Shown: positions 4,967-41,657 of the stretch, one piece after another
Position numbering within the stretch: position 1 is the stretch's first letter
Layout: every line of letters begins with the position of its first letter
Assembly (NCBI GenBank): GCA_002897655.1
Contig: BDTJ01000031.1
Coordinates: forward strand, 19,497-83,496
Length of the DNA stretch: 64,000 bases
DNA from: an archaeon BMS3Abin17
Lineage (GTDB): Archaea > Nanobdellota > Nanobdellia > Pacearchaeales > GW2011-AR1
Direction of reading: 5' to 3'
Notes under the pieces: generated by a model
The model's input: the letters and a program-made list of their open reading frames with translations, nothing else
Told to the model about the DNA's origin: nothing
Databases searched by the model: none
Position numbers and translations under genes: made by a program

Positions 4967-4987
4967 TACAACAAAAATCAAAAATTT

Positions 4988-18904: not shown

Positions 18905-18997
18905 ACCGCACCTTAAAAGGTGCGGTTTGTTTGGACTTTAGGATGTCCAAGGATTCATCCACACACTAAAGTGTGTGGTTTTCTCCAGAATCCTTGG
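18905..18997. repeat. Hairpin cluster: ACCGCACC/GGTGCGGT, plus nested CCAAGGATTC(CCACACAC-TAAA-GTGTGTGG)GAATCCTTGG
   Basis: Perfect 8-bp, 8-bp and 10-bp inverted repeats at 18905-18926, 18959-18978 and 18947-18956/18988-18997. GC-enriched relative to the surroundings. Confidence 0.7.
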
Positions 18998-19235
18998 CAT
19001 AATAAATTATTAATGTTTTTTTGGTATGGTCTAGTTTGAATATTAATACAAAATGCTTATCAATATGGACTCTGTTAAATATTTGCAGGGGTTTTTTAAG
19101 AAATTTATAAGAATGAGCTGGATTTTCTCTTACTTGTTTTATTTTCTTATCAATTATACTTAATTGACTGGGATTTTTTTTAGATAACTTAATAAATATT
19201 TTATCAGCTTCCTTTTTTATTTCTAAGCCATACAT
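18966..19235 (-). CDS. RelE-family toxin (C-terminus apparently replaced)
   Basis: Homologous to 41104..41394 (NRVHIDKHFVLIFKLD versus RRVHIDRSFVLAFKVD). The last 10 codons (AKDSGENHTL) are encoded by the nested hairpin element instead of the DHHDKIY-type end. Confidence 0.65.
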   Translation of the reverse strand: MYGLEIKKEADKIFIKLSKKNPSQLSIIDKKIKQVRENPAHSYKFLKKPLQIFNRVHIDKHFVLIFKLDHTKKTLIIYYAKDSGENHTL

Positions 19236-19236
19236 T

Positions 19237-19470
19237 TTATTTTATGTTGTATCTCTTAGAAAAGTTTTCAACTTTTATAGTTTTTTGTTTCTCAATTTTC
19301 CTTATCTTCTTAACAAACTCAGGTCTTAGATCAGGTTCATCTTCAAAATCAATAAATTTTTTAACAACAAGATTTATAGCTTCTCCTTTATCCTTTAAAC
19401 CAAATTTAGCTTTAACCACATTTAATACCCTATTAGTATTCTCATCAATTTTTATTAAAGCATTTACCAT
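19237..19470 (-). CDS. Antitoxin (DUF2683-like) paired with RelE
   Basis: DENTNRVLNVVKAKFGLKDKGEAIN is homologous to NDYTNRVLGIIKLKFGLKDKSGALN in 41397..41657. 1-nt gap to the toxin gene. Confidence 0.65.
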   Translation of the reverse strand: MVNALIKIDENTNRVLNVVKAKFGLKDKGEAINLVVKKFIDFEDEPDLRPEFVKKIRKIEKQKTIKVENFSKRYNIK

Positions 19471-22508: not shown

Positions 22509-23285
22509 ATGAAAAAGAGGGCGCAGGTGAGTGTTTTTATAATAGTTGGGATAATAATTGTAGCTGCAATCTCATTGTTCTTTTTATTAGATGGAACTCT
22601 TACTCCCTCAACAGGAGGAAGTTCTGAAATAAGCCCTAATTCTTATATGGAATCTTGTCTTGAAGATAAGATTATGGAAGCAACAGAATTAATTTCTGCA
22701 CAAGGAGGATATGTGGAAAATCCTTTAAACTTCACATTTAAGTTTGAAGATGAAGAAGATTACAAAGGTATTTCTTATTTATGTTATAATCAAAATTATT
22801 ATAATCCATGCATAGTTCAAGAGCCAATGCTTATTCAGCATCTAAAAGACGAGGTTTATAATTATATTCAAGAGGATGTTAGAAATTGTTTTGATGATTT
22901 AACTTCCAGTTTGGAGAGCAAAGGATTTACCATAGATGCCAGATACAGGGATTTTGAGGTTGAGTTAATTTCTAAAAAAGTTGTCCTGAACATAGATGCT
23001 GAAATTACAGCGACAAAAACAGACGAGATTAAGGAAATTAATGATTTAAAGACCTTTACTTCAACAGAATTTTATGATTTGGCACTTGTTGTGCAAGAGA
23101 TTGTAAGTCAGGAAGCAGAGTATTGTAATTTTAATCACTTAGGATATATGTTATTATATCCTGAATTTAAAATAGATAAATTTGAAACAGGAGATACAGA
23201 AACAATTTATACTGTGAAATATAAGAAAACAGAAGAGAGGTTTAGATTTGCTATAAGGAGTTGTGTAATCCCTCCAGGAATATAA
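22509..23285 (+). CDS. Pilin-like protein with a class III (prepilin-type) signal peptide; module A partner
   Basis: N-terminus MKKRAQVSVFIIVGIIIVAAISLFFLL ([KR][GA]-Q followed by a hydrophobic helix). Paralogue of 27709..28527, sharing conserved SAQGG, YLCYN..YY..C.VQ.PML and CFD.L. Confidence 0.7.
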   Translation: MKKRAQVSVFIIVGIIIVAAISLFFLLDGTLTPSTGGSSEISPNSYMESCLEDKIMEATELISAQGGYVENPLNFTFKFEDEEDYKGISYLCYNQNYYNPCIVQEPMLIQHLKDEVYNYIQEDVRNCFDDLTSSLESKGFTIDARYRDFEVELISKKVVLNIDAEITATKTDEIKEINDLKTFTSTEFYDLALVVQEIVSQEAEYCNFNHLGYMLLYPEFKIDKFETGDTETIYTVKYKKTEERFRFAIRSCVIPPGI

Positions 23286-23286
23286 T

Positions 23287-26200
23287 ATGAAAATAGGAAA
23301 TTTTCAAATCCTCGTTTGTAGGAATGATACAAACACCCAAAGAGGTGTAAACAAATATCGGAAAATGAAAATCAAAACAAAAATAGAATTTATAGTATTA
23401 ATAGTTGCAATAATTCAGATTTTATTATTAATTAATTTCACAGTTGCTAATAGTTATATGATTAATCAGGTACATAGTTCAATTGAGAATACAAAAATTG
23501 ATGAGGGAGAAAATGATATTACAGATTTAATAAATACTGGAATAAGTTTATTGATTGGATTTTTATCTATAAAACAAATTGGAGTTGTTTCTGCAGGAAG
23601 TGATGCGCATTGGGATTGCTGTCCTTTAACTGTTGATGGAGCTATATGCCAGGATATTTCTTCTGAAGATGTTAATTCTTGTGCTGTTAATGTTTTTCCA
23701 TATCAATCGTGTGATGAAAACACTGTAACAGATTGTAAAAAAGGATGTTGTATTGACGACGAGCAAGGATTATGTACAGAGAGTTCTACAAAAGTAAAAT
23801 GTGAGAATGATGGAGGAAGATGGGACGATGATGATAATTGTGGAATTACAGAATGTCAAAGAGGATGTTGTATTTTAGGAAATAATGCTAAATTTGTAAC
23901 AAGTGGGCAGTGTGAATATCAGGCCTCATCTTTAGGTTATGAACTTGATTTTAGAGATATTAATAATGAAATAGATTGTTTATATCTTAGTGTTAGTGAA
24001 GAAACAGGTGCTTGTGTTTATAGTGAAGGAGATTGTAATATTAAAACAGAAACAGAATGTGCTTCAAATGGAGGAGTGTTTGAAAAAAACTGGCTGTGTT
24101 CTCATCCTGATTTAGGAACTATTTGTGAAAGACACGCTTCTGTTAATTGTGTTGAAGACGAAGATGAAATTTATTGGTTTGATTCATGTGGAAATAAAGA
24201 AAATATTTATTCATCTGACAAAGATGCTTCATGGAATAATGGAAAAATGTTGTCTAAAGGAGAAAGTTGTGGTTCTGGAAATGCAAATATTGATTCAACA
24301 ACTTGTGGCAATTGTAATTATAATCTTGGAAGCACTTGTTCTGATGTCAATTTAGGAACAAGCATACAAGACGGGAATTTTGTTTGCAAGGATTTGGGAT
24401 GTTTTGATGAAGAGGGAAATGAAAGATACAATGGAGAAAGTTGGTGTGTTTATGATAATTCAATTGGGGAAGTGACAAGTTTCTGGGGGGATAATTTTGC
24501 AAGTGATCCTGTTGGAAGCAGGCACTGGAGAGTTTATTGTTATGATGGAGAGGTTGTAACAGAAGGATGCTCTGATTATAGGGGAGAAATTTGCACTCAG
24601 TATGATATGGAAGATAATGGAAAAACATATTCTGTTGCAGAGTGCACTACAAATGATGCATTTACATGTTTGAATTATAATCAGGATGAAGAGGAGATGG
24701 AGGAAAAGTGCAAGGATAATTCACACTGCATGATTAAGAGTGTTGATGTTGATGAGTATTTTAAGTTTAACTTATGTGTTGGAAAATACCCTCGTGGATT
24801 TGATTTATCTGGTAATGAAAACAGTGAAAATAGAGTATTATGCGGAATGGCAAGCATGACCTGTACTGTTGTTAAGCTTAGAGAATGGGATGGTGAATGG
24901 GGATGTGAATCAAATTGTGAATGTGAGGATGCTGAATTCGCTCAAAAAATGAATAATTTATGTGTGTCCTTGGGAGATTGTGGAAGTTATATTAATTATG
25001 TTGGAGAGGGAACAGATAATATTGGAGTACTTGGAGGTTCTGAATCAGCTCTTTGGACAGACTACAAAAAATACAAGAAACCAATTTCAGGAAAATATGC
25101 AAACCCTCAAAGTGCAGAATATATATTAGGTTTTCTTGGAACAAGTGTAAATGAATATGATGACAGTAGTAATGGAACTATTACGACACTTTCAATGTTA
25201 GGAACAATTACAGGTGGATTAGGGAGTGCAATTGTGGGGGCAGGGGTTCTTGGATTATTTGGAGCGACAGCAACAGCCACAGCTCCTGCAAGTACGGGCC
25301 TATTAGGAGCAGGAGGATTAGCAGCATATCCAACTCTTCAAGCATTTGGAGCAGCAGGAATTGGCTTGGCAATTGGGATGCTTGTTGGATATTTAATATC
25401 AAATATGCTTGGAATATCAGGAACACCTGCAACAATAATCACAATTGCAGCAGGAATTACAGGAGCATTAGTCGGGTTATTTCTTCTTGAGAAAGTCGCT
25501 TGGATAATCCCTGTTGTAGGAGCTATTGTTACAGTGATTATAATTTTATGGTCATGGCTTAGTGGATGGGGAGATGTTGAAGAAAAAGATATTGAATTTA
25601 ATTGTTATCCATGGGAAGCTCCTACAGGAGGGAATGATTGTCATTTATGCAATGAAGATGAATCAAAACCATGTTCTGAATATAGATGTGAATCTCTTGG
25701 GCAGGCATGTGTATTATTAAATGAAAGAACAGATAAACCAATTTGTGAATCTGTTCCAAATGACCATACCTCTCCTGTAATTAGTTCTGGAGAGATTTAT
25801 AATTATACTAATGCATTAAATAATCCCGTTGAAGAGCTTCAGATAGATCCAACTTATGATTTTTTAAATGAAGAATCAAAATATGTTGAATTGAGAAAAA
25901 ATGATTCTGAGTGTATTGATGAGTGGACTCCTGTTTTATTCACATTATCAACAGATGAATATGCTCAATGTAAGTATAGTTATGAAAGAGATTATACAAA
26001 TTTTGAAGATATGAAAGAATATCCTAATGACGATAATACTTATAACAAAAACCATACTTTTGTGTTTTTTATGCCTAGTTTAGATGCATTAGAAGTTAAT
26101 AATGTTAGTGGAGATTTAAAAGAAAGGTTTGGAAATACAAATATTTACACAAGGTGTAGGGATTATCACGATAATTATAATGTAGAAGAACATGTTGTGA

Positions 26201-27168
26201 ACTTTTGCATACACTCTGGACCAGACACAACTGCAGCATGGATTCAAAAACACGAACCAAATAAAGAATCATACATAGGATATAATCAAACAGAAAGTCC
26301 TCTTAAGATTTATTTAAATGAGCCTGCAGAATGTAAATATGATACAGAAGATAAAGATTATGATTTAATGCAAAATACAATGAGTTGCAGAACAGGTTTA
26401 AATGATGCAGAAGGTTATGGATGGCCATGTAACACTACACTAACAAACTTAAATGAAAGTGAAAATAAATTTTATATAAAGTGTAAAGATAAAACATGGG
26501 TTCAAACTCAAGAAGATATAGATCAATATGGAGAAAGAAATGTTAATACAAATGGATATGAATATAGTTTATATGGTTCTGATAGCCAACTAAAAATTGG
26601 TTCAGTAACTTTAACAGACGGAGAAAAAAGAACAATCAAAGAAGGAGAAACACTTGAGATTGGATTTGAACCTGTTTCAGTTGATTTAAAAGTTGAAACA
26701 TTTGGAGGAGCATTGAATGGTGAGGCAAGATGTTCATATAGTTTTGTAAGTTTTAATAACACTATCCAATTTTATACAACTTATTCAGATTATCACAAAC
26801 AAAACTTTAATTTAATGATGAGTGGAACAAAAGATGTTTATATTGAATGTGAAGATGAAGCAGGGAATATTGCAAAGGATAGTGCAAGATTTACAATAGA
26901 TGTTGATTCCAGCCCTCCAAAAGTTGTTAGAATTTATAATGATGGAAATTATTTAAAGATAATCACAGATGAAGGGGCAAAGTGTTATTATGATTTTGAC
27001 AAGTGTAATTTTAATATTAATAATGCTACTTCAATGACAACTGGCTTATCAACAGAACACAAAGCAGAATGGATTACTGGGAAAACTTATAATATTAAAT
27101 GTGAAGATTATTGGGATAATACAAATCCAACATGTGCAATAAAGATTACTCCAGATTATTTTGGATAA
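23287..27168 (+). CDS. Giant Cys-rich membrane/surface protein (module A; alternative start at 23365)
   Basis: 1293 aa. N-terminal TM segment. Extracellular Cys-rich region (GCCIDDEQGLC, RGCCILGNNAKFVT, CGNCNYNLGSTC). Central Gly/Ala-rich multi-TM segment. Conserved FNCYPWEAPTGGNDCHLCN...CSEYRCESLGQAC. Repeated beta-domain units with EC/AQCKY motifs. Confidence 0.75.
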   Translation: MKIGNFQILVCRNDTNTQRGVNKYRKMKIKTKIEFIVLIVAIIQILLLINFTVANSYMINQVHSSIENTKIDEGENDITDLINTGISLLIGFLSIKQIGVVSAGSDAHWDCCPLTVDGAICQDISSEDVNSCAVNVFPYQSCDENTVTDCKKGCCIDDEQGLCTESSTKVKCENDGGRWDDDDNCGITECQRGCCILGNNAKFVTSGQCEYQASSLGYELDFRDINNEIDCLYLSVSEETGACVYSEGDCNIKTETECASNGGVFEKNWLCSHPDLGTICERHASVNCVEDEDEIYWFDSCGNKENIYSSDKDASWNNGKMLSKGESCGSGNANIDSTTCGNCNYNLGSTCSDVNLGTSIQDGNFVCKDLGCFDEEGNERYNGESWCVYDNSIGEVTSFWGDNFASDPVGSRHWRVYCYDGEVVTEGCSDYRGEICTQYDMEDNGKTYSVAECTTNDAFTCLNYNQDEEEMEEKCKDNSHCMIKSVDVDEYFKFNLCVGKYPRGFDLSGNENSENRVLCGMASMTCTVVKLREWDGEWGCESNCECEDAEFAQKMNNLCVSLGDCGSYINYVGEGTDNIGVLGGSESALWTDYKKYKKPISGKYANPQSAEYILGFLGTSVNEYDDSSNGTITTLSMLGTITGGLGSAIVGAGVLGLFGATATATAPASTGLLGAGGLAAYPTLQAFGAAGIGLAIGMLVGYLISNMLGISGTPATIITIAAGITGALVGLFLLEKVAWIIPVVGAIVTVIIILWSWLSGWGDVEEKDIEFNCYPWEAPTGGNDCHLCNEDESKPCSEYRCESLGQACVLLNERTDKPICESVPNDHTSPVISSGEIYNYTNALNNPVEELQIDPTYDFLNEESKYVELRKNDSECIDEWTPVLFTLSTDEYAQCKYSYERDYTNFEDMKEYPNDDNTYNKNHTFVFFMPSLDALEVNNVSGDLKERFGNTNIYTRCRDYHDNYNVEEHVVNFCIHSGPDTTAAWIQKHEPNKESYIGYNQTESPLKIYLNEPAECKYDTEDKDYDLMQNTMSCRTGLNDAEGYGWPCNTTLTNLNESENKFYIKCKDKTWVQTQEDIDQYGERNVNTNGYEYSLYGSDSQLKIGSVTLTDGEKRTIKEGETLEIGFEPVSVDLKVETFGGALNGEARCSYSFVSFNNTIQFYTTYSDYHKQNFNLMMSGTKDVYIECEDEAGNIAKDSARFTIDVDSSPPKVVRIYNDGNYLKIITDEGAKCYYDFDKCNFNINNATSMTTGLSTEHKAEWITGKTYNIKCEDYWDNTNPTCAIKITPDYFG

Positions 27169-27172
27169 AGAA

Positions 27173-27493
27173 TTATTTTACAATCTCTACTTCATCTTTG
27201 TATAACTTTTTAGTTTTTCCATCTAATTTATAAGTAAAATTTCCTTCATCATCTTTTTTTAACACCCAAAAAGCATATCCTTCATCATCCAGAAAACAAA
27301 GCCAATTTTTTCCTCTTTTTGTTATCTTGTTCTTACAAGGAACATGTTCATAAGTAGATAGTCTATCGCGCCTTTCATTATACTTCTGTACAGCATACAT
27401 CGATAAACACCCTTGTGAAAATAACATAGTAGTAGCTAAAGCTACAGTCCCGAAAATTTTTCCAATTCCTAATTTATTCTTTATACTTTTCAT
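27173..27493 (-). CDS. Small lipoprotein-like protein (hypothetical)
   Basis: The N-terminal hydrophobic segment ends in SQGC (lipobox-like). 106 aa. Opposite strand, between the two modules. Confidence 0.45.
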   Translation of the reverse strand: MKSIKNKLGIGKIFGTVALATTMLFSQGCLSMYAVQKYNERRDRLSTYEHVPCKNKITKRGKNWLCFLDDEGYAFWVLKKDDEGNFTYKLDGKTKKLYKDEVEIVK

Positions 27494-27708
27494 ATATTTA
27501 ATATAGTGAACAGGTATTTAAACCTTTCTATATTTGTAATTGGATAGTGACAACATTTCAGGAGTATATTGTAATCATGCGCCAAATCTAAGATATTTGA
27601 TATGGAGGGCAGAACCTTCTGATAATTCTCTTAAAATATATTCAAAAATACCCTATAATAATCTATAATTTTGATTTGGGATAAATTTATTAACCAAAAA
27701 TTCCTAAT

Positions 27709-28527
27709 TTGAGTATGTTAAAGAGGGGTGGTGAAAAAGGGCAAGTTACAATATTTATAATTGTTGCAATATTAATTGTCATTATGGGAATTTTAATCTA
27801 TATGTTTTATCCGCAGATTAAAGCAAGTCTTGGAGGGGGTGTGGAAAACCCGGGTTCTTATATTCAAACATGCATAGGGGAAGAAATTCAAACTGCAGTT
27901 GATACATTATCTTCTCAAGGGGGAAGCATAAATCCAGAACATTATATACTATACCAAGACACAAAGATAGAATATTTATGCTATACAGGAGAATATTATC
28001 TAACATGTGTTGTTCAACAGCCAATGCTGAAAAATCATATTGAAAGCGAGATTGAGAGTGAAATTAGAGACGAGGTAAAAACCTGTTTTGATAATCTAAA
28101 AGAAAGTTATGAAAAAAAAGGCTATTCAGTTAATCTGAGAAAAGAAGAGATGGATGTTGAATTGCTTCCAAAAAGAATTGTGACTACATTTAATTATTCT
28201 CTTGCATTGAAAAAAGGAGATGATTCTCAAACATATAAGACATTTAGAGTAGTTTTGGACAATAATCTTTATGAATTAGTGAGTATTGCTAACAGCATAA
28301 TAAGCTGGGAAACAAAATACGGTGATGCAGAAACAACTACCTACATGAATTATTACCATGACTTAAAAGTTGAGAAGAAAAAACAGTCTGATGGCTCAAC
28401 AATTTATATTTTGACTGACAGAAACACAGGAGATAAATTCCAGTTTGCATCAAGAAGTGTTGCATGGCCTCCTGGTTATGGAGCAAGTGGAGTAGTCATG
28501 ACATCATATGCAACACAGGGAAGTTAA
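27709..28527 (+). CDS. Pilin-like protein with a class III signal peptide; module B partner
   Basis: MSMLKRGGEKGQVTIFIIVAILIVIMGILIYMF. Paralogue of 22509..23285. Confidence 0.7.
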   Translation: MSMLKRGGEKGQVTIFIIVAILIVIMGILIYMFYPQIKASLGGGVENPGSYIQTCIGEEIQTAVDTLSSQGGSINPEHYILYQDTKIEYLCYTGEYYLTCVVQQPMLKNHIESEIESEIRDEVKTCFDNLKESYEKKGYSVNLRKEEMDVELLPKRIVTTFNYSLALKKGDDSQTYKTFRVVLDNNLYELVSIANSIISWETKYGDAETTTYMNYYHDLKVEKKKQSDGSTIYILTDRNTGDKFQFASRSVAWPPGYGASGVVMTSYATQGS

Positions 28528-28528
28528 G

Positions 28529-28861
28529 ATGAAGAACAAAATAAATTCAAAGAAAATAATAAAATCAAAAATGTTAAGTAAAAAGGATATTATTAAAAAA
28601 ATAGAGAAGAACAAGGACAAGCTAAAAGAAAAAAGTATCAAAAAAATTGGAGTATTTGGAAGCTATATAAAAAATAAACAAAATAAAAAAAGTGATATTG
28701 ATATTTTAGTGGAATTTAAGAAACCGACATTTGACAACTATGCAGAAGTAATCATGTTGCTGGAAAAAGTGTTAAGGGGGAAGATAGACTTAATTACTAA
28801 AAAAAGCTTAAGACCTGAATTAAAACATGTAAAAAATGAGGTACAATATGCGAGATTATAA
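28529..28861 (+). CDS. Orphan minimal nucleotidyltransferase (MNT antitoxin-type)
   Basis: IGVFGSYIKNKQNKKSDIDILVEF NTase motif. The ORF track start is 28508; Met at 28529 follows the upstream stop. Confidence 0.75.
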   Translation: MKNKINSKKIIKSKMLSKKDIIKKIEKNKDKLKEKSIKKIGVFGSYIKNKQNKKSDIDILVEFKKPTFDNYAEVIMLLEKVLRGKIDLITKKSLRPELKHVKNEVQYARL

Positions 28862-28895
28862 GCTTTACTTGAAAGATATTTTAACTGCTATAAAT

Positions 28896-30446
28896 ATGAA
28901 AAAATCAATTAAAATAATTATAAGTTTAAGCATATTCTTAAGTATCTTAATTAGTCTGCTTCCATTAACAACTCCTGTTGGAGAGGTTTCATCTTGTTGT
29001 GAGAAAACAATTAGTGGGGCATGGTGTCAGAATTCTGAAGAGAGTAATTGCGACGATGAATACAGAAGCACCCCCACATCTTGTGAGGCAACTTCATTCT
29101 GTAAATTAGGGGTTTGCTATGATAGTAACGAAGGAACCTGTATGGAGAATACTCCTGAAAAAATTTGTGAAGAAGAAGGAGGGGTTTGGGAAGACTCAGA
29201 ACTTGACGAGGTTGAGCAGTGTATATTAGGATGTTGCTTGGTTGGAGATCAAGCAGCTTTTGTAACACAAACAAGATGTACAAAATTATCTTCTTTATAT
29301 GGATTAGAAACTAATTTTAGAACAGACATAACAAATGAGATGGAGTGTATTGCAAGTGCAGAGCCAGATGTAATGGGTGCTTGTGTTTACGAAGAGGAGT
29401 TTACAAATACTTGCAAGTTTATAACAAAAAAAGAGTGCCAGGATATTGAAGATGCGGAATTTCATGAAGATTATCTATGCTCTGATGAAAGTTTAGGGAC
29501 TATTTGCGGACCAAGTGAAAAGACTACTTGTGTTGAAGGAGAAGACCAGGTTTATTTTTTAGATACATGCGGTAATTTAGCAAATATATATGATGCGGAT
29601 AAAATTGAGGATGATTCTTACTGGTCAAAGGTTGTGAGTATAGCAGATAGTTGTGGATATGGAAGCGGCAATGCAGACTCTGCAACCTGTGGAAACTGTG
29701 ATTATTTTTTAGGAAGCACCTGTAAAAAATATAAAAGCAGTGAAGACAAAGTAAAGCCAAATTACGGGGATAATATTTGCAGAGATTTAAGTTGTGAATA
29801 CGAAGGACAAACTTATGAGCATGGAGAAACCTGGTGTGCAGCTGCCGAGGGTATTAAGGTTATAACTAGTTCTACTCAAAGTGATAGTCCATTAAGATAC
29901 AATGTTCCTGGAAGCAGATATACAAGATTAGTCTGTTATGATAATGAAGTAATGGTTGAATCATGTGCTGATTACAGAGCAGAAATCTGTTATCAATCAG
30001 ATGTTAATGGGTTTAAAGCATCTAGTTGTATTGTAAACATGTGGCATGATTGTTATGGTGTGACAAAACAGGAAGATTGTGAAAATACAGCTCAAAGAGA
30101 TTGTGAATGGGTTTCTAAATATTGTATACTAAAGGATGGGGAAGGAGAATGTCTTGCAGAAGCTGGTGCTTGTATCCCAAGATTTGCTCCTGGATTTGAT
30201 TTCTGGAATACAGAAGGAGATGCAGCTACTACCTGCTCTTATGCAAATACAGAATGTGTTGTTACATATAAAAATGGAGAGTGTGAAGAGAATTGTGATT
30301 GTCTGGGGGGTTCATGGGCTCAAGCACAAAATAGTTTTTGTTCTTCACTAGGTGATTGTGGAAGTAGTGTTAATTACATAAACAAAAAAGGATACAATGA
30401 TATTGATGTAATAATAAAAAGTGCTGAAGAAGAGGGAGGAGTATAA
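28896..30446 (+). CDS. Cys-rich surface protein, equivalent to the N-terminal half of the module A giant
   Basis: Cys pattern collinear with residues ~100-560 of 23287..27168. The track ORF starts at 28836, but its first 20 codons (MRYNMRDYKLYLKDILTAIN) look like a DUF86/HEPN N-terminus remnant. MKKSIKIIISLSIFL is the likely signal peptide. Confidence 0.7.
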   Translation: MKKSIKIIISLSIFLSILISLLPLTTPVGEVSSCCEKTISGAWCQNSEESNCDDEYRSTPTSCEATSFCKLGVCYDSNEGTCMENTPEKICEEEGGVWEDSELDEVEQCILGCCLVGDQAAFVTQTRCTKLSSLYGLETNFRTDITNEMECIASAEPDVMGACVYEEEFTNTCKFITKKECQDIEDAEFHEDYLCSDESLGTICGPSEKTTCVEGEDQVYFLDTCGNLANIYDADKIEDDSYWSKVVSIADSCGYGSGNADSATCGNCDYFLGSTCKKYKSSEDKVKPNYGDNICRDLSCEYEGQTYEHGETWCAAAEGIKVITSSTQSDSPLRYNVPGSRYTRLVCYDNEVMVESCADYRAEICYQSDVNGFKASSCIVNMWHDCYGVTKQEDCENTAQRDCEWVSKYCILKDGEGECLAEAGACIPRFAPGFDFWNTEGDAATTCSYANTECVVTYKNGECEENCDCLGGSWAQAQNSFCSSLGDCGSSVNYINKKGYNDIDVIIKSAEEEGGV

Positions 30447-30447
30447 A

Positions 30448-32985
30448 ATGCAAAAGAGGTTAAACACAAGTAAATCAAAGATTTCCTGCACCACGAAATC
30501 TCAGGCTGTGCCTACAACGAGAATCACAGATTCTCGAGCATGCCAACTTCAAGAAAAGAAAGGAAGTTGTCATACGCATAGACATATGAGCAATAATTTC
30601 GTTGGCAAAAAAGGTGCACTGGCATTAAGCCAGATAATCATATTGCTAGTTGGAATCTTTGCTTTTACCTGGAGTATTGGAATTGTTAGTGGTGGTGCTA
30701 TGCCGGAAGAGAATCCTCTAGAAAATCTTGTGTGTGAAAGTTGTCCCCAATCTTCAAGTTCTAATATCCCCACAAGTACAGGAAAAAATACAGCGACAAC
30801 TATAACAAGTGGATACACCCCGGCACAACTTGAGAAGGCTATAAAAAAGGCTACAGAGAGTGTTGGAGAAGAAATTAACAATTTAAATAAAGAAATTGCA
30901 GGATTGGAAGAAGCAGGCACAACATCAACTGAAAAAATTAGTGAATTAGGATCACAACTAACTAATAAAGAAAAAGAGCTTGCTAATCTACAAGCATGTG
31001 TAAAAGATTCTGGTGGTGCCGGATGTAAGGATGTTATAGAAAAAGGAACTACCTCAAAAGGTGGAAGCTCAACCTTATCTGAATGGTTAGGCATAGAGAA
31101 GCTCCCAGAAGGGCAAACAGCAGAATTTTGGACTTGGCAGCAAGGAGGATTTGCAGATGGAATTATTTCAGGAGCACAATACGGACTTATGACTTATGGG
31201 GCTGTTAAAATGCTTGGACCAATGTTAGGACTTGATGAAGAAGAAACAGATGCAGCATCTGTTTCATTAGGTGCAGGAGTTGGTGTGGGAAAATTAATCT
31301 ACACTTTACTTGGTAAGGGAGGTGCTCTAAGTGGAGAAGGAACTATGAATACTATCTTAAAATTTGGAGGAAAATTAAGTTCAGGGTTATCAAGTGTTCT
31401 TTGGGGGGCAATAGTAGCATACATATTATGGAAGATGCTTTATGAAGAAGTTGAATATGATTTAGTCACATTTACATGCGAGCCATGGGAAGCACCTGTT
31501 GGAGGGAGTTATTGTGAAGAGTGTAACAATCAGGGAATCTTGCCTTGCTCAGAATATCAATGCCGTTCACTTGGACAGGCTTGTGAATTATTAAACCAAG
31601 GAACAGATGAAGAAGCATGTACATGGGTAAATAGATATGATGTTGAATATCCTATAATAGAGCCATGGCAGGATGCATTACTTGATAGTTATGATTATAC
31701 CCCTGACAATACTATTTCACCTCCAGATAGGGGTGTGAAAATTGTTTATACAGATTCAGAGGATAATTGCATACCTGCATTCTCTGCATTTAGTTTTGGA
31801 GTAACTGTAAATGAACCTGCAAAATGCAAGATTGATTATATAAGGAAAGAAACATTTGATGAAATGGATTTCTGGTTTGGAGGAAATTCTTTATTTAGAT
31901 ATAATCACACACAAACAATGAGTCTTCCTGGTTTAGAATCTCTATCCTCAGATAATTTAACAGTAGAAAATGATGGAGAGTTTACATTATATACAAGATG
32001 TCAGGATGCTAATGGAAATTCTAATACTGCAACTTTTGTATTCAAGTACTGTGTTGATAAAGGGCCAGATACAACCCCCCCAATGATTGTAGACACAAGC
32101 ATAAAAAACAACATGCCTATTGCATACAACACAAGTTCTGTAGATTTAGAAGTTTATGTAAATGAACCATCAGAGTGTAAATGGAGCCACACAGACCAAT
32201 CTTATGATAACATGGAAGAGCAAATGTCTTGCTCAACTTCAGTAACTGAGATGAATGCCAGGTTATTATACACCTGCACAACAACCCTGACAGGATTAAA
32301 AGACAAGCAGGATAATGACTTTTATTTCAGATGCAAAGACCAACCATCCTCACCTGATGCAGACAGAAATGTAAATACAGAATCTTATGAATTTGTGATA
32401 ATTGGAACCCAGCCATTAGTTATTGATGAAGCCGGACCTAATGAAACAATAAAAGACTCAACAGACAGTGTCAAGGTAACCCTGACAGCAGAAACATCTG
32501 CAGGATATAATGAAGGAGATGCAACCTGCTATTATAGTGAGACAGATTATGATGACGATTACATAATGTTCTTTTATGAAGAAGGAACAAGCTCATACAC
32601 ACATGCTCAGGATTTATGGTTAGGTGAAGGGGATTATTTCTATTACATAAAATGTATTGACTTAGGTGGAAACATGGACAAGGCAAATGTCTCATTTAGT
32701 GTTGATTCTGATACAGATTCTCCTGTAATTGTAAGGGCATATCATGAAGATGAGTATCTAAAACTAATAACAGACGAGACAGCAGAGTGTGTTTATGATA
32801 CAACAAGCTGCAGTTATGATTTTGAAGATGGGATAAAGCTGACTACTTATGATGATGTTGAGCACTATACAGAATGGAATACAGAAGTAGATTTGTTTGT
32901 AAAATGCCAGGATGAATTCGGCAACCAGCCATTGCCTAATGCCTGCAGTATTATCGCGCGTCCTTTTGAAATCTTTGAAGAGTGA
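30448..32985 (+). CDS. Membrane/surface protein, equivalent to the C-terminal half of the module A giant (alternative start at 30586)
   Basis: Conserved FTCEPWEAPVGGSYCEECN...CSEYQCRSLGQAC and beta-domain repeats collinear with 23287..27168. MSNNFVGKKGALALSQIIILLVGIF at 30586 is a class-III-like signal. Confidence 0.7.
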   Translation: MQKRLNTSKSKISCTTKSQAVPTTRITDSRACQLQEKKGSCHTHRHMSNNFVGKKGALALSQIIILLVGIFAFTWSIGIVSGGAMPEENPLENLVCESCPQSSSSNIPTSTGKNTATTITSGYTPAQLEKAIKKATESVGEEINNLNKEIAGLEEAGTTSTEKISELGSQLTNKEKELANLQACVKDSGGAGCKDVIEKGTTSKGGSSTLSEWLGIEKLPEGQTAEFWTWQQGGFADGIISGAQYGLMTYGAVKMLGPMLGLDEEETDAASVSLGAGVGVGKLIYTLLGKGGALSGEGTMNTILKFGGKLSSGLSSVLWGAIVAYILWKMLYEEVEYDLVTFTCEPWEAPVGGSYCEECNNQGILPCSEYQCRSLGQACELLNQGTDEEACTWVNRYDVEYPIIEPWQDALLDSYDYTPDNTISPPDRGVKIVYTDSEDNCIPAFSAFSFGVTVNEPAKCKIDYIRKETFDEMDFWFGGNSLFRYNHTQTMSLPGLESLSSDNLTVENDGEFTLYTRCQDANGNSNTATFVFKYCVDKGPDTTPPMIVDTSIKNNMPIAYNTSSVDLEVYVNEPSECKWSHTDQSYDNMEEQMSCSTSVTEMNARLLYTCTTTLTGLKDKQDNDFYFRCKDQPSSPDADRNVNTESYEFVIIGTQPLVIDEAGPNETIKDSTDSVKVTLTAETSAGYNEGDATCYYSETDYDDDYIMFFYEEGTSSYTHAQDLWLGEGDYFYYIKCIDLGGNMDKANVSFSVDSDTDSPVIVRAYHEDEYLKLITDETAECVYDTTSCSYDFEDGIKLTTYDDVEHYTEWNTEVDLFVKCQDEFGNQPLPNACSIIARPFEIFEE

Positions 32986-33035: not shown

Positions 33036-34064
33036 TTAAATTACTCCTGATTCATCAATACTAAAAGTATTTTCTTCAGAATTAATTGTTACATTTACTC
33101 CTAGAGGCAAAGTTATTATCGGATCTGTATGCCCTATATCTACATTAATTAATATTGGAAAATTATACTCTTTAAGATGTTCCTTAATAATTTCTTCAAA
33201 TTGTGTTTTTTCCTCGTCTGAATAACCAAAAGGCCTTCCAACAATTAATCCTTTAATCTTGTTAAAAATCCCTTTATTCTTTAAATCAACTATTTGTGCT
33301 TCAACATAAGGAATTGGTTCTCCTTTAGTAAAATCCTTCCCTTCAGGAGTTTCTATAAATAATATTTTATCTGTATAGTCTAAGTCAATATCAGTTCCTA
33401 TTAAATAAGCTATTGAATGAAGACATCCTCCAACAATATTTGCTTTAGCACTACCTGGTTTTAACCATTTATAACCAGAATTCTTCCCTAATTTACGGGA
33501 TCTTGTTAAATCTAATTTTTGAAACCAATCTAATAATTCACTTGTCCATTCTTCTGATGGCTCAATCTTTCCAAGAGTTCTTCCTTCAACAAGAGTATTA
33601 ATAAAAGAATTCTTTGTATATTCTAATACATCAGGAAACTCTCCAAACTGGGTGATTGCGCAAGGTCCATAAAAAGTAACTAATTCTGCTTTCTTCTGGA
33701 ATGCATAGTGTAGAATAGTTGTGTCAGAATAACCAACAAATATTTTTGGATTTTCTTTTATTATATTGTAATCTATCTTAGAAATAAGCTGATTATTTGA
33801 AATTCCACCAGTAGCACAGATTATCGCCTTAACTTTTTTATCTAAGAACGCATCATGTATATCTTTAATCCTTTCACCAATAGTTCCAGCATTACCATTA
33901 TCATTCAATTTTGTTGTGGGAAATAATTTAACCTTAAAACCTAAATTCTCTAGATTTTTTTTTGCAGCCTCTAATCTGTGTGGAACTAGACTAGCAAGAC
34001 TTCCTGATGGAGCAATAATCCCAATAGTATCTCCAATCTCTAATTTATTTGGTTTAGTTAACAT
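33036..34064 (-). CDS. S66-family serine peptidase (LD-carboxypeptidase / MccF-like)
   Basis: The Ser-Glu-His triad contexts are all present: FVGYSDTTILH, LFIETPEG and VDIGHTDPIITLPLG. Confidence 0.8.
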   Translation of the reverse strand: MLTKPNKLEIGDTIGIIAPSGSLASLVPHRLEAAKKNLENLGFKVKLFPTTKLNDNGNAGTIGERIKDIHDAFLDKKVKAIICATGGISNNQLISKIDYNIIKENPKIFVGYSDTTILHYAFQKKAELVTFYGPCAITQFGEFPDVLEYTKNSFINTLVEGRTLGKIEPSEEWTSELLDWFQKLDLTRSRKLGKNSGYKWLKPGSAKANIVGGCLHSIAYLIGTDIDLDYTDKILFIETPEGKDFTKGEPIPYVEAQIVDLKNKGIFNKIKGLIVGRPFGYSDEEKTQFEEIIKEHLKEYNFPILINVDIGHTDPIITLPLGVNVTINSEENTFSIDESGVI

Positions 34065-35220
34065 TTTTTATATATTTAATTACTTCTTGTGGATTATCAA
34101 ATCTAGCCTCTTTATTTAATTTCCTGTCATTTATCGAGATTCCTGATTTAGAAACAATTATCTTAATAGGTATTCCAAGAAAATCAGATAATTCGGCTTT
34201 TTCTTTTCTCTTTATCCTTTTTCTATCATCATATAACACTCTAGATCCAGATTCATTTAATCCTTGGTATATCTTATTTGCTAAGCTATTAGAAGCTTGA
34301 GAATCAACATCAAATAACAATACACTGCTATCAAAAGGCCTAATCTGCTTAGGTAAATTAAATCCTTGATTGTCTCTAGATGAATCAAATGCTGTATATA
34401 ATACTCGTTCAAGCCCTATTGCATATGTCCCAACAACAGGCTTTATTTCTTCGTTTCCTGAAGAAATTAATGAGACTTTATTGACAGAAGGCATAAACTC
34501 ATACCCCATAGATAAACTTAATGCCTTAACCCTTCCTTCTGAATCATCTAGCACCAGATTATCTCCTTCCTCTCCCTCATAAAAGTATTCTAAATCAAAA
34601 TCAAGGTGCGAACCTCTTCTATTTTCTCCGCCCAAACAAAGCCTTACAGGAATATTTAAATCTCCAAATATAGATTCTGAAATATGCTTATAGGCTTCTA
34701 AAGATTCATTAAAAGATACTCTATCTTTATCTAAAGATAGCATCATGACTACTTCAAATTCTCTGCATTTTAAAATACCTTTTGGATCTTTTATAGGCCT
34801 TAAAATGTCTTTATTTGTAAATAATTTTAAAGGCAAAGCTTTATGTGAGATTTTATCTCTCGATAAATAATCTAATATTTCTGCCTCATGTGTGGTTAAA
34901 AGCATATACTTTTCCATAGGTTCAGGAACCATAACAAATTTCTTCTTAAAAGTTTCTTCAATCTTCTCACCTTGATTTAATAAATCTCTTCTCATAAAAC
35001 TAGGCATTTTAATTTTCAAAGCTCCAACTTCACTGTGTTTTCTCATTACCATGTTTCTAACATTGGAAAGAATAATGTCTCCTATTGGGGGATAATAAGG
35101 TAATCCAGGATTTTTATAATCTACAATAAATCCCAAATCTATTAACTCAGATGTTTTCTTATCCATAATCCCCTTTGGAATTCTCATTAAATTTTGAAGG
35201 GGTAGGCTACTGAGTCTCAT
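34054..35220 (-). CDS. Divergent class IIa aminoacyl-tRNA-synthetase-like protein (ProRS-like core plus HGTP anticodon-binding-type domain)
   Basis: Motif 2-like ILRPIKDPKGILKCREFEVV, motif 3-like GTYAIGLERVLYTAF, TTHEAEIL (compare PTSEE). C-terminal alpha/beta domain (VLLFDVD...GIPIKIIVS). Only 388 aa, with no Zn/C-terminal domain. Confidence 0.6.
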   Translation of the reverse strand: MRLSSLPLQNLMRIPKGIMDKKTSELIDLGFIVDYKNPGLPYYPPIGDIILSNVRNMVMRKHSEVGALKIKMPSFMRRDLLNQGEKIEETFKKKFVMVPEPMEKYMLLTTHEAEILDYLSRDKISHKALPLKLFTNKDILRPIKDPKGILKCREFEVVMMLSLDKDRVSFNESLEAYKHISESIFGDLNIPVRLCLGGENRRGSHLDFDLEYFYEGEEGDNLVLDDSEGRVKALSLSMGYEFMPSVNKVSLISSGNEEIKPVVGTYAIGLERVLYTAFDSSRDNQGFNLPKQIRPFDSSVLLFDVDSQASNSLANKIYQGLNESGSRVLYDDRKRIKRKEKAELSDFLGIPIKIIVSKSGISINDRKLNKEARFDNPQEVIKYIKNVN

Positions 35221-36041
35221 TTAATCTCCTTTGAAGTGTAAAGTTCTTTATCTTCCCAAACCATTTTATTTGATAATAAAATAATACTAAAACCCATCTT
35301 AGATAAATTATCCCTAAATAAATACATGTAATCCTTATATTTCTTATAAAGTGTATTCAAAGTATCTTTTCTCATTTCTTTTAAGTGAGCTCTATCTAAA
35401 ATATTTTCTACAAATGATTTCACTTCTTTGTCCATTATATAATCAAATTTAAACTTTTTAGTATAATAAACTTCTAAATTAGGTATATCAAAAAATTTAT
35501 CCCAGTCTTTTTCAAACAAAGGACTTATATTAACTTGAATTGCTTCACTAACTTCTTTGATTAATTTATTGAATGGTTTAACTATATAATACATTGGAAC
35601 AGCAACTATAAACCCTGATTTTTTACAAACCCTCCTACATTCATTAAATGCTTGTTCCTTGTTAGACATTAGTGAAAGAACATTGCCAATAATAACTAAA
35701 TCAAAACTTTCATCATCAAAAGGCAATTTATTTACATCTGCTTTTAGAAGTTTTAAGTTCTCGACTTTTTCTTTTATTGCCCTTTTCCTTGTTTCTTTTA
35801 AACTTATCTCATTAATATCTATTGAAGTAATATAACAAGGAATTAATTTGCTTAATTCAATTGCAGTAAAACCGGTGCTAGTACCGATTTCTAAAACTTT
35901 ACTATGTCTGTCTATACAAGTTCTATTAACAATTTCAAAAACAGTTTTTCTTCCCCCAGGAATTCTATTTGTTTCTTTTGTAATTCCAATTAACTCGTTA
36001 TAATCCATGTCTTTAATTTGCTTGGGGGTTAAATCTTTCAT
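35217..36041 (-). CDS. Class I SAM-dependent methyltransferase
   Basis: Motif I VLEIGTSTGFTAIEL. Motifs DINEISL and FDLVIIGNVL. 4-nt ATGA overlap with the downstream gene. Confidence 0.75.
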   Translation of the reverse strand: MKDLTPKQIKDMDYNELIGITKETNRIPGGRKTVFEIVNRTCIDRHSKVLEIGTSTGFTAIELSKLIPCYITSIDINEISLKETRKRAIKEKVENLKLLKADVNKLPFDDESFDLVIIGNVLSLMSNKEQAFNECRRVCKKSGFIVAVPMYYIVKPFNKLIKEVSEAIQVNISPLFEKDWDKFFDIPNLEVYYTKKFKFDYIMDKEVKSFVENILDRAHLKEMRKDTLNTLYKKYKDYMYLFRDNLSKMGFSIILLSNKMVWEDKELYTSKEIK

Positions 36042-36042
36042 T

Positions 36043-37182
36043 TTATGGTTTTAAAGTTTTATCAACTCTAGGAAATTGTGATGCACTCCAAATAAAAGGC
36101 ATCTCTAAAATACCTTGTATCATTCTTTCCAATCCAACTCCAAATCCAGAAGTAACTTCATAATCTTCAAATTTCCTGGTTTGAAAGTAAGGACTATAAT
36201 CTTTTAAGGGTAGATTGAAAATCTTTGCTTTATCTTGAAGTTCCTTTTTTGACCTTATTCTATGTCCACTTCCAATAAACTCTCTATATCCTGGCCAAAT
36301 TACATCTGAATTATTAGCGACTTCAGGTTTTTTGCAATCTACTTGAGCATGATAAAAAGGAACTTCTAAGAGTGGAAATTCTTTTATTAGAACCATATTT
36401 CCTAAAATCTCAGTAAGTTTTATTTCTTCCCATGAACCAAAATTCTTGAGTGAAAATTCCTTATAAACATCATCTTTAGTTTCTTCATAAAGAATATCAA
36501 GAGCCTCTCTAAATTTTAGTTGGGGTATTCTCCCTATATTTGCTGCAAAATTATCTAGAGATTTCAGTTTCCTTTTAGTTAAAAAATGGCTTAAGTCTTT
36601 TTCATTTTTATTTAATAAGTCTTTAATTATCTTTTTTGTAAGGCCTAATGCAATTCGTTCATTATCTTCTTGAGACACCTTACCCTCATATTCTATATGA
36701 TGAAATTCAGATAAATGAGTTGCATCAGCTTTTTCCTTTCTAAATGAATTGTATATGGAATAAACATGTTTAAGCTCTTTTGGAGTTAATGCTAATTCAA
36801 GATATATTTGAGAGGATTCAGATAAAAATGCAGAATCTTCTAAATCAAACCATTTCAAGGTTATTGGGCATACATCAGTTGTATAATCAATGGCCTCTTT
36901 TCCATATACTGCCCCTGGAGAAGAGATCATCTTTGTTGTCAAAGGTAATGGAACAAAACAAGCACCAATGTTATCAAAATACTCATTTGTAGACATATTT
37001 ATTCTGTGATTTATCTGAGTTATATGCTTCCACATATCTTCTTTCTTAAATTGTTTAACTCTATTTTCAATTTCATTAATAGGAACTTTTTTACTAGATA
37101 TGTCCTCTATTACTGGAAACACATTATTTCCATTATATGAAATGCTTTTATCTTCATTAGCTCTGTATGGACCTTTCATCAT
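36043..37182 (-). CDS. Class IIb aaRS catalytic-core paralogue without an OB anticodon-binding domain (AsnRS/AspRS-like; AsnA-type ligase candidate)
   Basis: SESSQIYLELAL. Motif 2 FRKEKADATHLSEFHHIEYE. EFIGSGHRIRS. Motif 3 SGFGVGLERMIQGIL. No N-terminal OB fold. Confidence 0.65.
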   Translation of the reverse strand: MMKGPYRANEDKSISYNGNNVFPVIEDISSKKVPINEIENRVKQFKKEDMWKHITQINHRINMSTNEYFDNIGACFVPLPLTTKMISSPGAVYGKEAIDYTTDVCPITLKWFDLEDSAFLSESSQIYLELALTPKELKHVYSIYNSFRKEKADATHLSEFHHIEYEGKVSQEDNERIALGLTKKIIKDLLNKNEKDLSHFLTKRKLKSLDNFAANIGRIPQLKFREALDILYEETKDDVYKEFSLKNFGSWEEIKLTEILGNMVLIKEFPLLEVPFYHAQVDCKKPEVANNSDVIWPGYREFIGSGHRIRSKKELQDKAKIFNLPLKDYSPYFQTRKFEDYEVTSGFGVGLERMIQGILEMPFIWSASQFPRVDKTLKP

Positions 37183-37362: not shown

Positions 37363-37875
37363 ATGATTAAGAAGAGGGGAAGTAAAAGAGGGCAAATGAA
37401 ATTATCCTATGGAATGATATTCTCAATCATATTAATAATAGTTTTCCTTGCATTTGCATTTTACGCAATTAAGAAATTTATGGGAATTCAAAATACTGTA
37501 ATGGTTGGGGATTTTATAGACAGTTTGGGGAGTGATGTTGACAAAATGTGGAAAGGCTCACAAGGCTCTCAAGAAAGAGAATATAGGTTGCCAAAAAAGA
37601 TACAGTATGTTTGTTTTGCTGATTTCTATTCCTCAGAAAGAGGGGGAAAAGATGAATATTATCCTGAATTAAAGAGGGTATTTAATGAAAAAGAAAATCT
37701 TGTTTTTTATCCTGTTGGCTCGGGGGGGGAATTTGACTCTGTTGAAGTAAAACATATTGATATTGAAGCCATGACAGAAAATAACAACCCGTACTGCATT
37801 GAAAACAAGGATGGAAAGGTAAATATGATAATTAAAAAAAATCATGGAGAAGCCTTAGTTACTGTCTCTGATTAA
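37363..37875 (+). CDS. Pilin-like protein (class III signal peptide)
   Basis: MIKKRGSKRGQMKLSYGMIFSIILIIVFLAFAFYAI. Confidence 0.65.
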   Translation: MIKKRGSKRGQMKLSYGMIFSIILIIVFLAFAFYAIKKFMGIQNTVMVGDFIDSLGSDVDKMWKGSQGSQEREYRLPKKIQYVCFADFYSSERGGKDEYYPELKRVFNEKENLVFYPVGSGGEFDSVEVKHIDIEAMTENNNPYCIENKDGKVNMIIKKNHGEALVTVSD

Positions 37876-37898
37876 AATAAAATCTGTGTCTAAATAAA

Positions 37899-41396: not shown

Positions 41397-41657
41397 TTAA
41401 ACCTCACAAAGTTTATCTAACTCTTGCAAGGTCATCTTTTTATTGCCGTACTTTTCTAAGTGTTTTTTGGTTATGTTAATTATTTTTTTAACGTGTTCTT
41501 CAGTTGCTTCTTTTTCCATAATTTCATCTCCATATAGTTCAATAAATTTATTTAAGGCTCCTGATTTATCTTTTAATCCAAATTTTAACTTTATTATTCC
41601 CAGTACTCTATTAGTATAATCATTCAACTCAACTCTTGCAGAAACTATTTTTTCCAT
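41397..41657 (-). CDS. Antitoxin (DUF2683-like) paired with RelE
   Basis: MEKIVSARVELNDYTNRVLGIIKLKFGLKDKSGALN. The track ORF extends to 41720, but Met22 gives a length matching its paralogue. Confidence 0.65.
   Translation of the reverse strand: MEKIVSARVELNDYTNRVLGIIKLKFGLKDKSGALNKFIELYGDEIMEKEATEEHVKKIINITKKHLEKYGNKKMTLQELDKLCEV

Follow-up and report, generated by a model that had tools for sequence, protein, structure and literature searches.

The 64,000-nucleotide stretch analyzed here, from contig BDTJ01000031.1 of the archaeon BMS3Abin17 and hereafter called the window, carries at 22509-32985 two tandem gene modules, A and B, each of which encodes a small protein with a prepilin-type N-terminus followed by a giant cysteine-rich surface protein. 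Comparison of gene order across related genomes indicates that these two modules are the front part of a larger operon of Pacearchaeota-type Nanoarchaeota, in the order small A, large A, small B, large B-N, large B-C, p170, p320, p211 and p158, and the products of this operon are probably parts of one cell-surface machine. As a unit it brings together seven proteins of prepilin-like type and a pair of giant, Cys-rich paralogues, of which one is permanently split, and so offers defined targets for proteomics, electron cryotomography and complex prediction. The arrangement that we favor, if tentatively, is a membrane-rooted, pseudopilus-like hetero-complex that displays the two giant proteins, and an adhesion or cell-contact role for it is possible. 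Archaea of the Pacearchaeota and Woesearchaeota type within the Nanoarchaeota are abundant, uncultured and genome-reduced, and we know of no account of how they build their envelopes or make contact with other cells. The operon is among the most conserved lineage-specific features of these archaea, every one of its products is annotated as hypothetical, and a literature search found no description of it.

The conservation of the operon was assessed from a scan of one genome per GTDB species, which gave 427 coding stretches related to large A. From these the best 80, representing 78 distinct loci from species-representative genomes, were taken further, and synteny was read from tblastn searches of the window proteins against 83 fetched loci, with gene calls checked in five of them. 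The labels of the best 80 of the 427 stretches are Nanoarchaeota, Pacearchaeota or Woesearchaeota, the single exception being Aenigmatarchaeota. The operon order is kept in the 78 distinct loci: large A is immediately preceded by a small gene in 63 of 66 loci, small B and then B-N lie downstream of the A module in all 57 loci, B-C comes next after B-N in 35/40, the complete set of four further small genes stands behind B-C in 15/22, and PCNA is found upstream in 43/55. The pairing of a small with a large gene therefore extends well beyond this genome, a point on which the initial annotation had let its interpretation depend. The recurrent locus reads p431, p606 and primase on the minus strand, PCNA on the plus strand, the operon, a minus-strand HVO_A0114-type regulator, and an S-layer-like (surface layer) gene. 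In locus L004, neighbors among the eight genes that run from small A through p158 either abut or overlap by 1-41 nucleotides (nt). In the window p170 to p158 occupy 37363-39960 and are parted from B-C by a 4-kb minus-strand insertion at 33036-37182, and the initial annotation passed over these four genes, which belong to the same operon in other genomes. The window genome itself is archaeal and of DPANN type, with a fused PriS-PriL primase and PCNA directly upstream of small A and FtsZ elsewhere; its base composition is uniform along the window at a GC content of about 31%. A pacearchaeosortase gene at 47171-47719 on the minus strand (NCBIfam NF033505, E 1e-65) places it in a Pacearchaeota-type lineage.

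Sequence searches with individual proteins recovered families of considerable size. More than 500 relatives of large A were found at E<=1e-5, and the best 120 of them are full-length (1140-1520 residues), 36-52% identical and all hypothetical proteins, from metagenome-assembled genomes labelled Pacearchaeota, Nanoarchaeota or simply 'archaeon'. The same kind of search with small A gave 201 relatives at 49-62% identity. A small-protein profile searched against 1.84 billion representatives returned 5801 matches at E<=1e-3 and 532 at E<=1e-30; the weaker of the 5801 may cover the N-terminal helix only, and the search, with strong full-length relatives among the matches listed, speaks to family size and provides no remote link.

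The two modules are clearly related, and the genes of both are present in an open reading frame (ORF) listing of the window at the positions used here. Small A (22509-23285, plus strand, 258 residues) has the N-terminus MKKRA↓QVSVFIIVG, the arrow marking the predicted cleavage point, followed by a flexible linker and an alpha/beta domain with four invariant Cys. Small B (27709-28527, plus strand) encodes 272 residues from a TTG codon with the N-terminus EKG↓QVTIFIIVA, and its true start is probably the ATG at 27715, giving 270 residues. The two share 33% identity over 255 residues (BLASTP, E 3e-54), which bears out their description as paralogues. Large A is likewise 36% identical to B-N over 490 residues (E 1e-75) and 32% identical to B-C over 656 residues (E 7e-80) by BLASTP, far beyond chance, as was also proposed from the collinear pattern of their cysteines, which is indeed present; there are 67 cysteines in large A, 45 in B-N and 28 in B-C.

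Duplication of the module is ancient, older than the radiation of these archaea, because orthologues of small B, B-N and B-C elsewhere are 50-69% identical to the window B proteins compared with 32-36% between A and B, and because both the A and B modules are kept in all 57 informative genomes. The initial annotation had suggested that duplication with divergence reflects diversifying use. In its strongest form that proposal would be a recent tandem duplication of an adhesin module, with the copies diverging for different hosts or for immune evasion, and it draws on the tandem arrangement of the modules, their 32-36% identity and the presence of a second A-type module in seven loci. A recent event cannot easily account for the occurrence of both types as orthologous pairs at 57/57 loci, for B orthologues being much nearer to each other than to A, or for the conserved fission of large B described below, and the regions most conserved in the large proteins, the head and the Cys-knot, are the opposite of what diversification would lead one to expect. 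We consider it very improbable, and the suggestion of diversifying use does not survive.

The architecture of large A (23287-27168, plus strand; 1293 residues from the first ATG) illustrates these constraints. The conserved start is probably M27 (nt 23365, 1267 residues), since orthologue N-termini begin about 10 residues ahead of the first hydrophobic stretch. The 2-nt gap to small A, on which a proposal of co-translation was built, is correct for the first ATG and is not secure, as the M27 start leaves 79 nt; in orthologues the small and large A genes abut or overlap, with spacings of -4 to +4 nt. An AlphaFold model of residues 95-1293 (mean predicted local distance difference test score, pLDDT, 80.2; predicted template-modelling score 0.60) gives this order of parts: a confident, beta-rich, Cys-rich head, a disordered linker (model residues 523-597, pLDDT<50), three helices of low confidence, a Cys-knot modelled with very high confidence, and four beta-sandwiches. 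The head is the N-terminal ectodomain (residues 111-575, 23617-25011, plus strand), which contains 46 Cys and is homologous to B-N. It is followed by a Gly/Ala-rich hydrophobic segment (25174-25581, plus strand; residues about 630-765) with three to four predicted helices, by the juxtamembrane Cys-knot (25588-25761, plus strand) with the pattern C.PWEAP.GG..C..CN...CSEY.C.SLGQAC.LLN, and by an array of four immunoglobulin-like (Ig-like) beta-sandwich domains (25774-27165, plus strand), each carrying an A/E.C.Y ... C.D..GN Cys pair. The multi-helix Gly/Ala-rich segment of the large proteins, their near-invariant Cys block and their C-terminal beta-type repeats had all been noticed from the letters alone; the segment is present, the block recurs as C.PW.AP.GG..C..CN..(7)..CS.Y.C.SLGQAC.LLN across 51 large A orthologues, and the repeats correspond to the four Ig-like domains of the model.

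About 60 Cys are invariant in these 51 orthologues, and large A is full-length wherever the contig permits among the tested loci. Mean pairwise identity by domain is 52% for the head, 54% for the Cys-knot, 42-46% for the Ig-like domains and 25-29% for the linker and Gly/Ala segment, so that the Cys-knot is the most conserved region and the Gly/Ala-rich segment the least. The exposed domains of large A thus appear from their sequences to be under purifying selection, with no sign of diversification. By Foldseek the large A model matched many Ig/FN3 arrays in PDB and BFVD with probability 1.0 at 7-12% identity, and its stalk, as modelled, is an ordinary Ig-like array; the head found no match in this search with the full model.

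The Gly/Ala-rich segment invites a more adventurous interpretation. In the window large A, Gly plus Ala make up 35% of it and charged residues 1.6%, and small-xxx-small-xxx-small motifs occur 13 times. By a crude hydropathy count, too variable to fix the topology, the number of transmembrane-like stretches in this region differs widely among orthologues, and its homologue in B-C is amphipathic and charged; these features are odd for an ordinary polytopic anchor and would fit the lining of a heteromeric pore or an insertion element. For a metabolically dependent DPANN archaeon with a reduced genome it can be imagined that these helices, placed between two disulfide-rich ectodomains, form a channel or a latent, fusion-peptide-like membrane-inserting element, a conduit to the host membrane or a means of fusing with it. 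No viral class I fusion protein or fusexin was among the top Foldseek matches in PDB and BFVD, nor was there a structural match to pore-formers, Ig arrays dominating the full-model search; moreover, the segment is the least confidently modelled part of the protein as well as the least conserved, the argument rests on composition, and there is no known host for the lineage. A host-contact membrane machine of this kind is therefore improbable. A bolder variant, in which a lineage-defining cell-contact machine uses a bundle of pilin helices to position the paralogues so that glycine-zipper or fusion-peptide-like helices insert into or cross the partner membrane, we likewise regard as a long shot. 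If true, it would be the pathway, long sought, through which these cells, dependent on others for lipids and nucleotides, obtain host material.

Large B presents the same domains in two genes. B-N (28896-30446, plus strand; 516 residues) consists of a plain Sec signal peptide (...ISA↓..SYCCEKT) and a Cys-rich ectodomain with no further hydrophobic segment, and by this prediction is secreted without an anchor. B-C (30448-32985, plus strand; 845 residues) begins with the class-III-like N-terminus KKG↓ALALSQIIILLVG, followed by a coiled coil, the amphipathic Gly-rich segment, the Cys-knot and four Ig-like domains. Its ATG at 30448 has GGAGG 9 nt upstream; the start may alternatively be M47 (nt 30586), directly ahead of the KKG↓ALALSQ signal, because orthologues begin a few residues before the [KR]G motif. 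Of 39 loci, 38 encode B-N and B-C in separate ORFs, and the gene is divided at the very linker that is left disordered in the large A model. A frameshift or pseudogene as the cause of the split was rejected, given that 38 of 39 loci are split and that each half has its own signal sequence; as judged from these sequences the split is a conserved gene fission and not damage. The sole locus with both parts in one ORF (L072, 6469-10638) may be ancestral, a secondary fusion or an assembly error. Large B provides a clean natural case of a gene split at an interdomain linker and kept that way throughout a whole order.

The feature that ties the operon together is found at the N-termini. Downstream of B-C lie, at these window positions, p170 (37363-37875; KRG↓QMKLSYGMIFSIIL), which in other genomes comes directly after it, p320 (37899-38861; KKG↓YLQISFGWMFALIV, eight Cys), p211 (38855-39490; KRG↓QLKIQQMAFMLMAV, eight Cys) and p158 (39484-39960; KRA↓QEEMVGFALIII, four Cys), all on the plus strand and all with class-III-like N-termini. 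The six small families share a common plan of a short basic stretch, [KR][G/A/S] and about 20 hydrophobic residues. The [KR][GAS] pair sits at the boundary between basic and hydrophobic residues in 63/67 small A and 70/71 small B orthologues, which supports the recognition of prepilin-type N-termini in these two proteins, and in 23/23, 20/22, 19/20 and 17/20 orthologues of the other four families. A Gln directly follows [KR][G/A/S] in 61 small A and 64 small B orthologues, and Q occupies position +1 in five of the six small families. The family consensus is K(K/R)GQ(V/I)T(I/V)FII for small A, KRGQVTIFII for small B, KRGQMKLSFGMIFSIIL for p170, KKG(Y/F)LEISF.WLFAII for p320, K(K/R)(G/A)QLKIQQMAFML for p211 and KK(A/G)QEEMVGFALII for p158, and the N-terminus of roughly two-thirds of the B-C orthologues reads [KR]G.(I/M)A(L/I)SQI.IL. 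A FlaFind-type expression, [KR][GA][ALIFQMVED][ILMVTAS]x3, matched 51/67 small A and 58/71 small B orthologues, and almost none in the four downstream families. Among 74 window ORFs, the combination of [KR][GAS]Q with a hydrophobic stretch occurs in members of the cluster only. Profile comparison with hhalign confined the likeness between small families to the N-terminal 30-80 residues, with probabilities of up to 90-95% (for example, 90% over 56 residues for small A and p158, and 95% over 77 residues for p170 and p320). Likeness limited to the N-terminal segment is a usual mark of pilin sets. What small A, small B, p170 to p158 and most B-C proteins have in common is a prepilin-type, class-III-like N-terminus, with cleavage predicted.

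Taken together, these features suggest how a pseudopilus-like complex could be built. The class-III-like N-termini would be cut by an archaeal prepilin peptidase, and the hydrophobic helices would then pack, as in minor pilins and pseudopilins, into a short membrane-rooted bundle assembled by type-IV-filament machinery encoded elsewhere. This bundle would carry both giant disulfide-rich proteins as a hetero-complex, with large A rooted additionally through its Gly/Ala-rich helices. Because B-N is without an anchor it must presumably be retained by an adjacent partner, and we suggest that it is held non-covalently by small B and/or B-C, and that small A would have the same holding role for the large A head. 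The four Ig-like domains could form a stalk that passes through the region of the S-layer; the Cys-rich head, itself conserved, may bind a conserved surface ligand, which could belong to the envelope or S-layer of the same cell or be a conserved feature of a partner cell.

Several observations weigh against this proposal. None of the scanned window ORFs encodes a type-IV-filament ATPase, a FlaJ/TadC platform protein or an A24 peptidase, and no filament machinery recurs among the unmatched ORFs of at least 250 residues within 10 kb on either side of about 80 loci, where housekeeping genes alone were seen. No pilin or Class_IIIsignal model in Pfam or NCBIfam matched any cluster protein at E<=0.1. 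The FlaFind-type expression matched only zero or one orthologue in each of the four downstream families, and the less strict [KR]G motif is likewise found in plain Sec signal peptides encoded by this genome, for instance those of p431 and p606. The N-terminus of large A differs from the G/A-Q type of the small proteins, and the strong conservation of its ectodomains is unusual for host-specific adhesins. Finally, the globular domain of small A, the only small protein modelled, is not recognizable as a pilin. The AlphaFold2 model (pLDDT 87.6) has a helix at residues 3-30, a linker at residues 29-39 with pLDDT<50, and then a compact alpha/beta domain, rather than the N-terminal helix of a pilin that continues into and packs on a beta-rich domain. 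A Foldseek search of this model against PDB gave nothing at E<=1e-3, the top matches being dsRBD, XLF and PCNA fragments with a template-modelling score of 0.1. The pilin-like character given to these proteins in the initial annotation is therefore not supported for the globular domain. The missing local machinery weakens the pseudopilus model and does not kill it, because archaeal pilin genes are often unlinked from their assembly machinery and nanoarchaeal type IV pilus ATPases have been reported for which no cognate pilins were identified (PMC4858521).

The main rival to this model is an arrangement in which the cluster is a housekeeping envelope scaffold whose signal anchors stay uncleaved and whose products are constitutive envelope parts, concerned with S-layer anchoring, spacing or biogenesis, with no pilus-like assembly and no direct part in host contact. 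The near-universal presence of the cluster at a fixed chromosomal place by PCNA, primase and the S-layer-like gene speaks for such a role, as do the conserved ectodomains, the locus free of type-IV-filament genes and a small-protein fold that is not pilin-like and whose helix is set apart by a flexible linker. The neighboring p431 and p606 are ordinary anchored Cys-rich surface proteins, and a scaffold also fits the lineage-specific membrane and extracellular families that are catalogued for Pacearchaeota and Woesearchaeota (PMC8204110). However, a generic signal anchor leaves unexplained both the near-invariant G/A-Q at the same place in five families and the restriction of inter-family likeness to the N-terminal segment, and the retention of the anchorless B-N is left open. 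On balance an envelope scaffold of this kind seems somewhat less likely than the pseudopilus-like complex.

The compact domain of the small proteins raises a further alternative, namely that they are membrane-tethered maturation factors, chaperones or enzymes, for the Cys-rich head encoded immediately downstream. Small A is strictly adjacent to the gene for the large A head, and small B to B-N rather than to B-C; the domain is confidently modelled without structural relatives; and the polar residues Q104, H111, E115, E202 and R250 are invariant or near-invariant across A and B types, in addition to the four invariant Cys. The small proteins lack a thioredoxin-like CxxC and resemble no enzyme or chaperone family, and the conserved residues could equally be interface residues. 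A maturation role is, in our estimate, distinctly unlikely.

The initial annotation could assign no known family to the large proteins, and profile and structure searches agree, with no Pfam, NCBIfam, PHROG or PDB family found for them. Searches of the core proteins against Pfam, NCBIfam and PHROGs gave sub-threshold noise only (GerPC, Chordopox_A13L, Big_13, coiled-coil families, Ralst_lectin and TraP), including a Big_13 match in B-C at E 0.017 in Pfam. Profiles of the small proteins, of full large A and of the head only found nothing below E 0.3 among PDB sequences, and the large A model, when searched by Foldseek in PDB and BFVD, yielded generic Ig/FN3 arrays only, which swamped the list. 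PilY1 beta-propeller and DUF2341 domains had no Pfam match in large A, B-N or B-C, and Foldseek again gave Ig arrays only; S_layer_N and S_layer_C did not match the large proteins. A Pfam match to CoV_NSP4_N in 10/27 head sequences (best E 8e-4, far below the cut-offs) was judged compositional. A viral or mobile origin of the cluster was rejected, given the lack of any PHROG match, the uniform base composition and the fixed chromosomal position.

Further genes lie between and around the core components. The initial annotation also passed over the sequence between small B and B-N, which holds an antitoxin-like MNT-type nucleotidyltransferase (28529-28861, plus strand; Pfam NTP_transf_2, E 4e-14), a non-core insert that begins 1 nt past the small B stop, and the remnant of a HEPN/DUF86 toxin N-terminus, MRYNMRDYKLYLKDILTAIN (28836-28895, plus strand). 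The latter, MRDYKLYLKDILTAIN, is about 17-20 codons long and is fused in frame to the B-N start. A complete MNT-HEPN module was not found in the window, where the MNT gene is accompanied only by this N-terminus. Intact MNT-HEPN pairs occupy both the small B/B-N and the B-N/B-C slots of locus L027 (14312-14933 and 16392-17023); about 12 of 80 loci have MNT matches within the cluster or next to it, chiefly in these two gaps, and modules inside the operon frequently overlap the adjoining genes. A further MNT-like gene is found at 8960-9526 of the window, and a tyrosine recombinase (4139-4966; Phage_integrase, E 1e-40) lies close to the window start. Between the two modules, a 106-residue ORF on the minus strand (27173-27493) has a lipoprotein-like N-terminus (…TTMLFSQGC) and no tblastn match in other loci; locus L083 carries a different lipoprotein-like ORF in the same gap. 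The minus-strand insertion that separates B-C from p170 encodes an LD-carboxypeptidase (S66), two class-II aminoacyl-tRNA-synthetase-like proteins and an S-adenosylmethionine-dependent methyltransferase. One of the synthetase-like pair is a bare catalytic core of 379 residues and the other has weak matches to core and anticodon domains, and the block could be a small amino-acid-ligase or modification island.

Downstream of the operon, a Fic/DOC-domain protein (40034-40942, E 1.7e-19) stands immediately behind p158. The interval between p158 and the S-layer-like gene also holds a conserved HVO_A0114-type winged-helix protein (41767-42120, minus strand; E 1.5e-16), with a counterpart at 19649-20002 of L004; it is a candidate regulator of the cluster. 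The S-layer-like gene (42531-45155, plus strand) encodes a secreted Ser/Thr-rich protein of 874 residues that is conserved downstream and whose L004 orthologue has a weak S_layer_C match; the pacearchaeosortase gene follows 2 kb downstream, a hint of sortase-type processing of some surface protein. On the upstream side, p606 (16867-18687, minus strand) is conserved and secreted, with 30 Cys, a C-terminal membrane anchor and a Pro/Arg-rich cytoplasmic tail, and p431 (14804-16099, minus strand) is conserved, secreted and beta-rich, with a juxtamembrane Cys motif and a C-terminal anchor. The two share the juxtamembrane Cys-rich motif C..GG.C....CC, and their position upstream of primase is kept in most loci. 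A DUF2683-type small protein (E 4.5e-6) and an 89-residue ORF that is RelE-like by eye lie between p606 and primase (18966-19470, minus strand), and a DUF2683-like paralogous ORF is found at 41397-41720 on the minus strand; these are probably further toxin-antitoxin modules. Two relatives, L001 (6085-6945, MKRRG↓MSAIIT…) and L006 (6246-7574, MEKRG↓LSTVVT…), have an ORF with a textbook archaeal pilin N-terminus placed between primase and PCNA, adjacent to the cluster, the primase orthologue of L036 lies within a 1375-residue ORF (3064-7191, minus strand) compared with 516 residues in the window, and wide gaps between primase tblastn pieces in L018, L028, L071 and others suggest intein-like or other insertions.

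Comparison with known systems helps to delimit what is familiar in this operon. The four consecutive beta-sandwiches of the large proteins resemble the tandem Ig-like (Big/HYR/FN3) stalks of bacterial and archaeal surface adhesins and S-layer-associated proteins, but the match is generic and silent on the distinctive conserved parts, which are the head, the Cys-knot and the Gly/Ala segment. Castelle et al. 2021 (PMC8204110) describe modules specific to Pacearchaeota and Woesearchaeota that consist mostly of membrane or extracellular hypothetical families. The cluster proteins share this lineage distribution and probably belong to those modules, whereas the operon, its paralogy, the fission and the class-III-like N-termini are not described in the portion considered here. 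Archaeal type IV pilins and class III proteins (the Epd type with Q at +1, and the FlaFind class) have in common with the cluster, at the extreme N-terminus, a short basic stretch with G or A at -1, followed by Q at +1 and a hydrophobic run of about 20 residues, and also the occurrence in one operon set of several divergent families that share this segment alone. Unlike those pilins, the cluster proteins have large globular domains that are not pilin-like and match no pilin profile, and their locus provides no ATPase, platform or peptidase.

Class III signals are also present on non-pilin surface proteins assembled by type-IV-filament machinery, such as the substrates of the Sulfolobus bindosome (preprint 10.64898/2026.04.22.720090). 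The small A model, with its class-III-like helix, flexible linker and autonomous globular domain, follows the same plan, and as modelled its architecture is nearer to such class-III proteins with a tethered domain than to a filament-forming major pilin. The likeness stops there, since small A shows no resemblance to solute-binding proteins and has no adjacent ABC transporter, its partner being a giant Cys-rich protein. A broader parallel is with minor-pilin and pseudopilin sets that include a large tip protein (bacterial FimU-PilVWX-PilY1, and GspHIJK of the type II secretion system), which likewise combine four to six low-copy pilin-like proteins with one or two very large surface proteins and have Cys conserved in nearly all components. 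Archaeal pilus loci can contain large DUF2341 'PilY-like' proteins, or two large proteins together with Cys-rich minor pilins (PMC4858521). Large A and large B differ from these in having neither PilY1 nor DUF2341 domains, and in that one carries a multi-helix hydrophobic segment and the other is encoded by two genes; what links the sets is gene-set logic, and neither sequence nor fold. In sum, the large proteins, the head, the Cys-knot and the fold of the small proteins have no detectable relatives, and the only links to known systems are the prepilin-type N-terminus and a gene set that pairs minor pilins with large proteins. The system has a small chance of being categorically new. The cluster may also supply the 'missing pilins' of the nanoarchaeal type IV pilus ATPases (PMC4858521).

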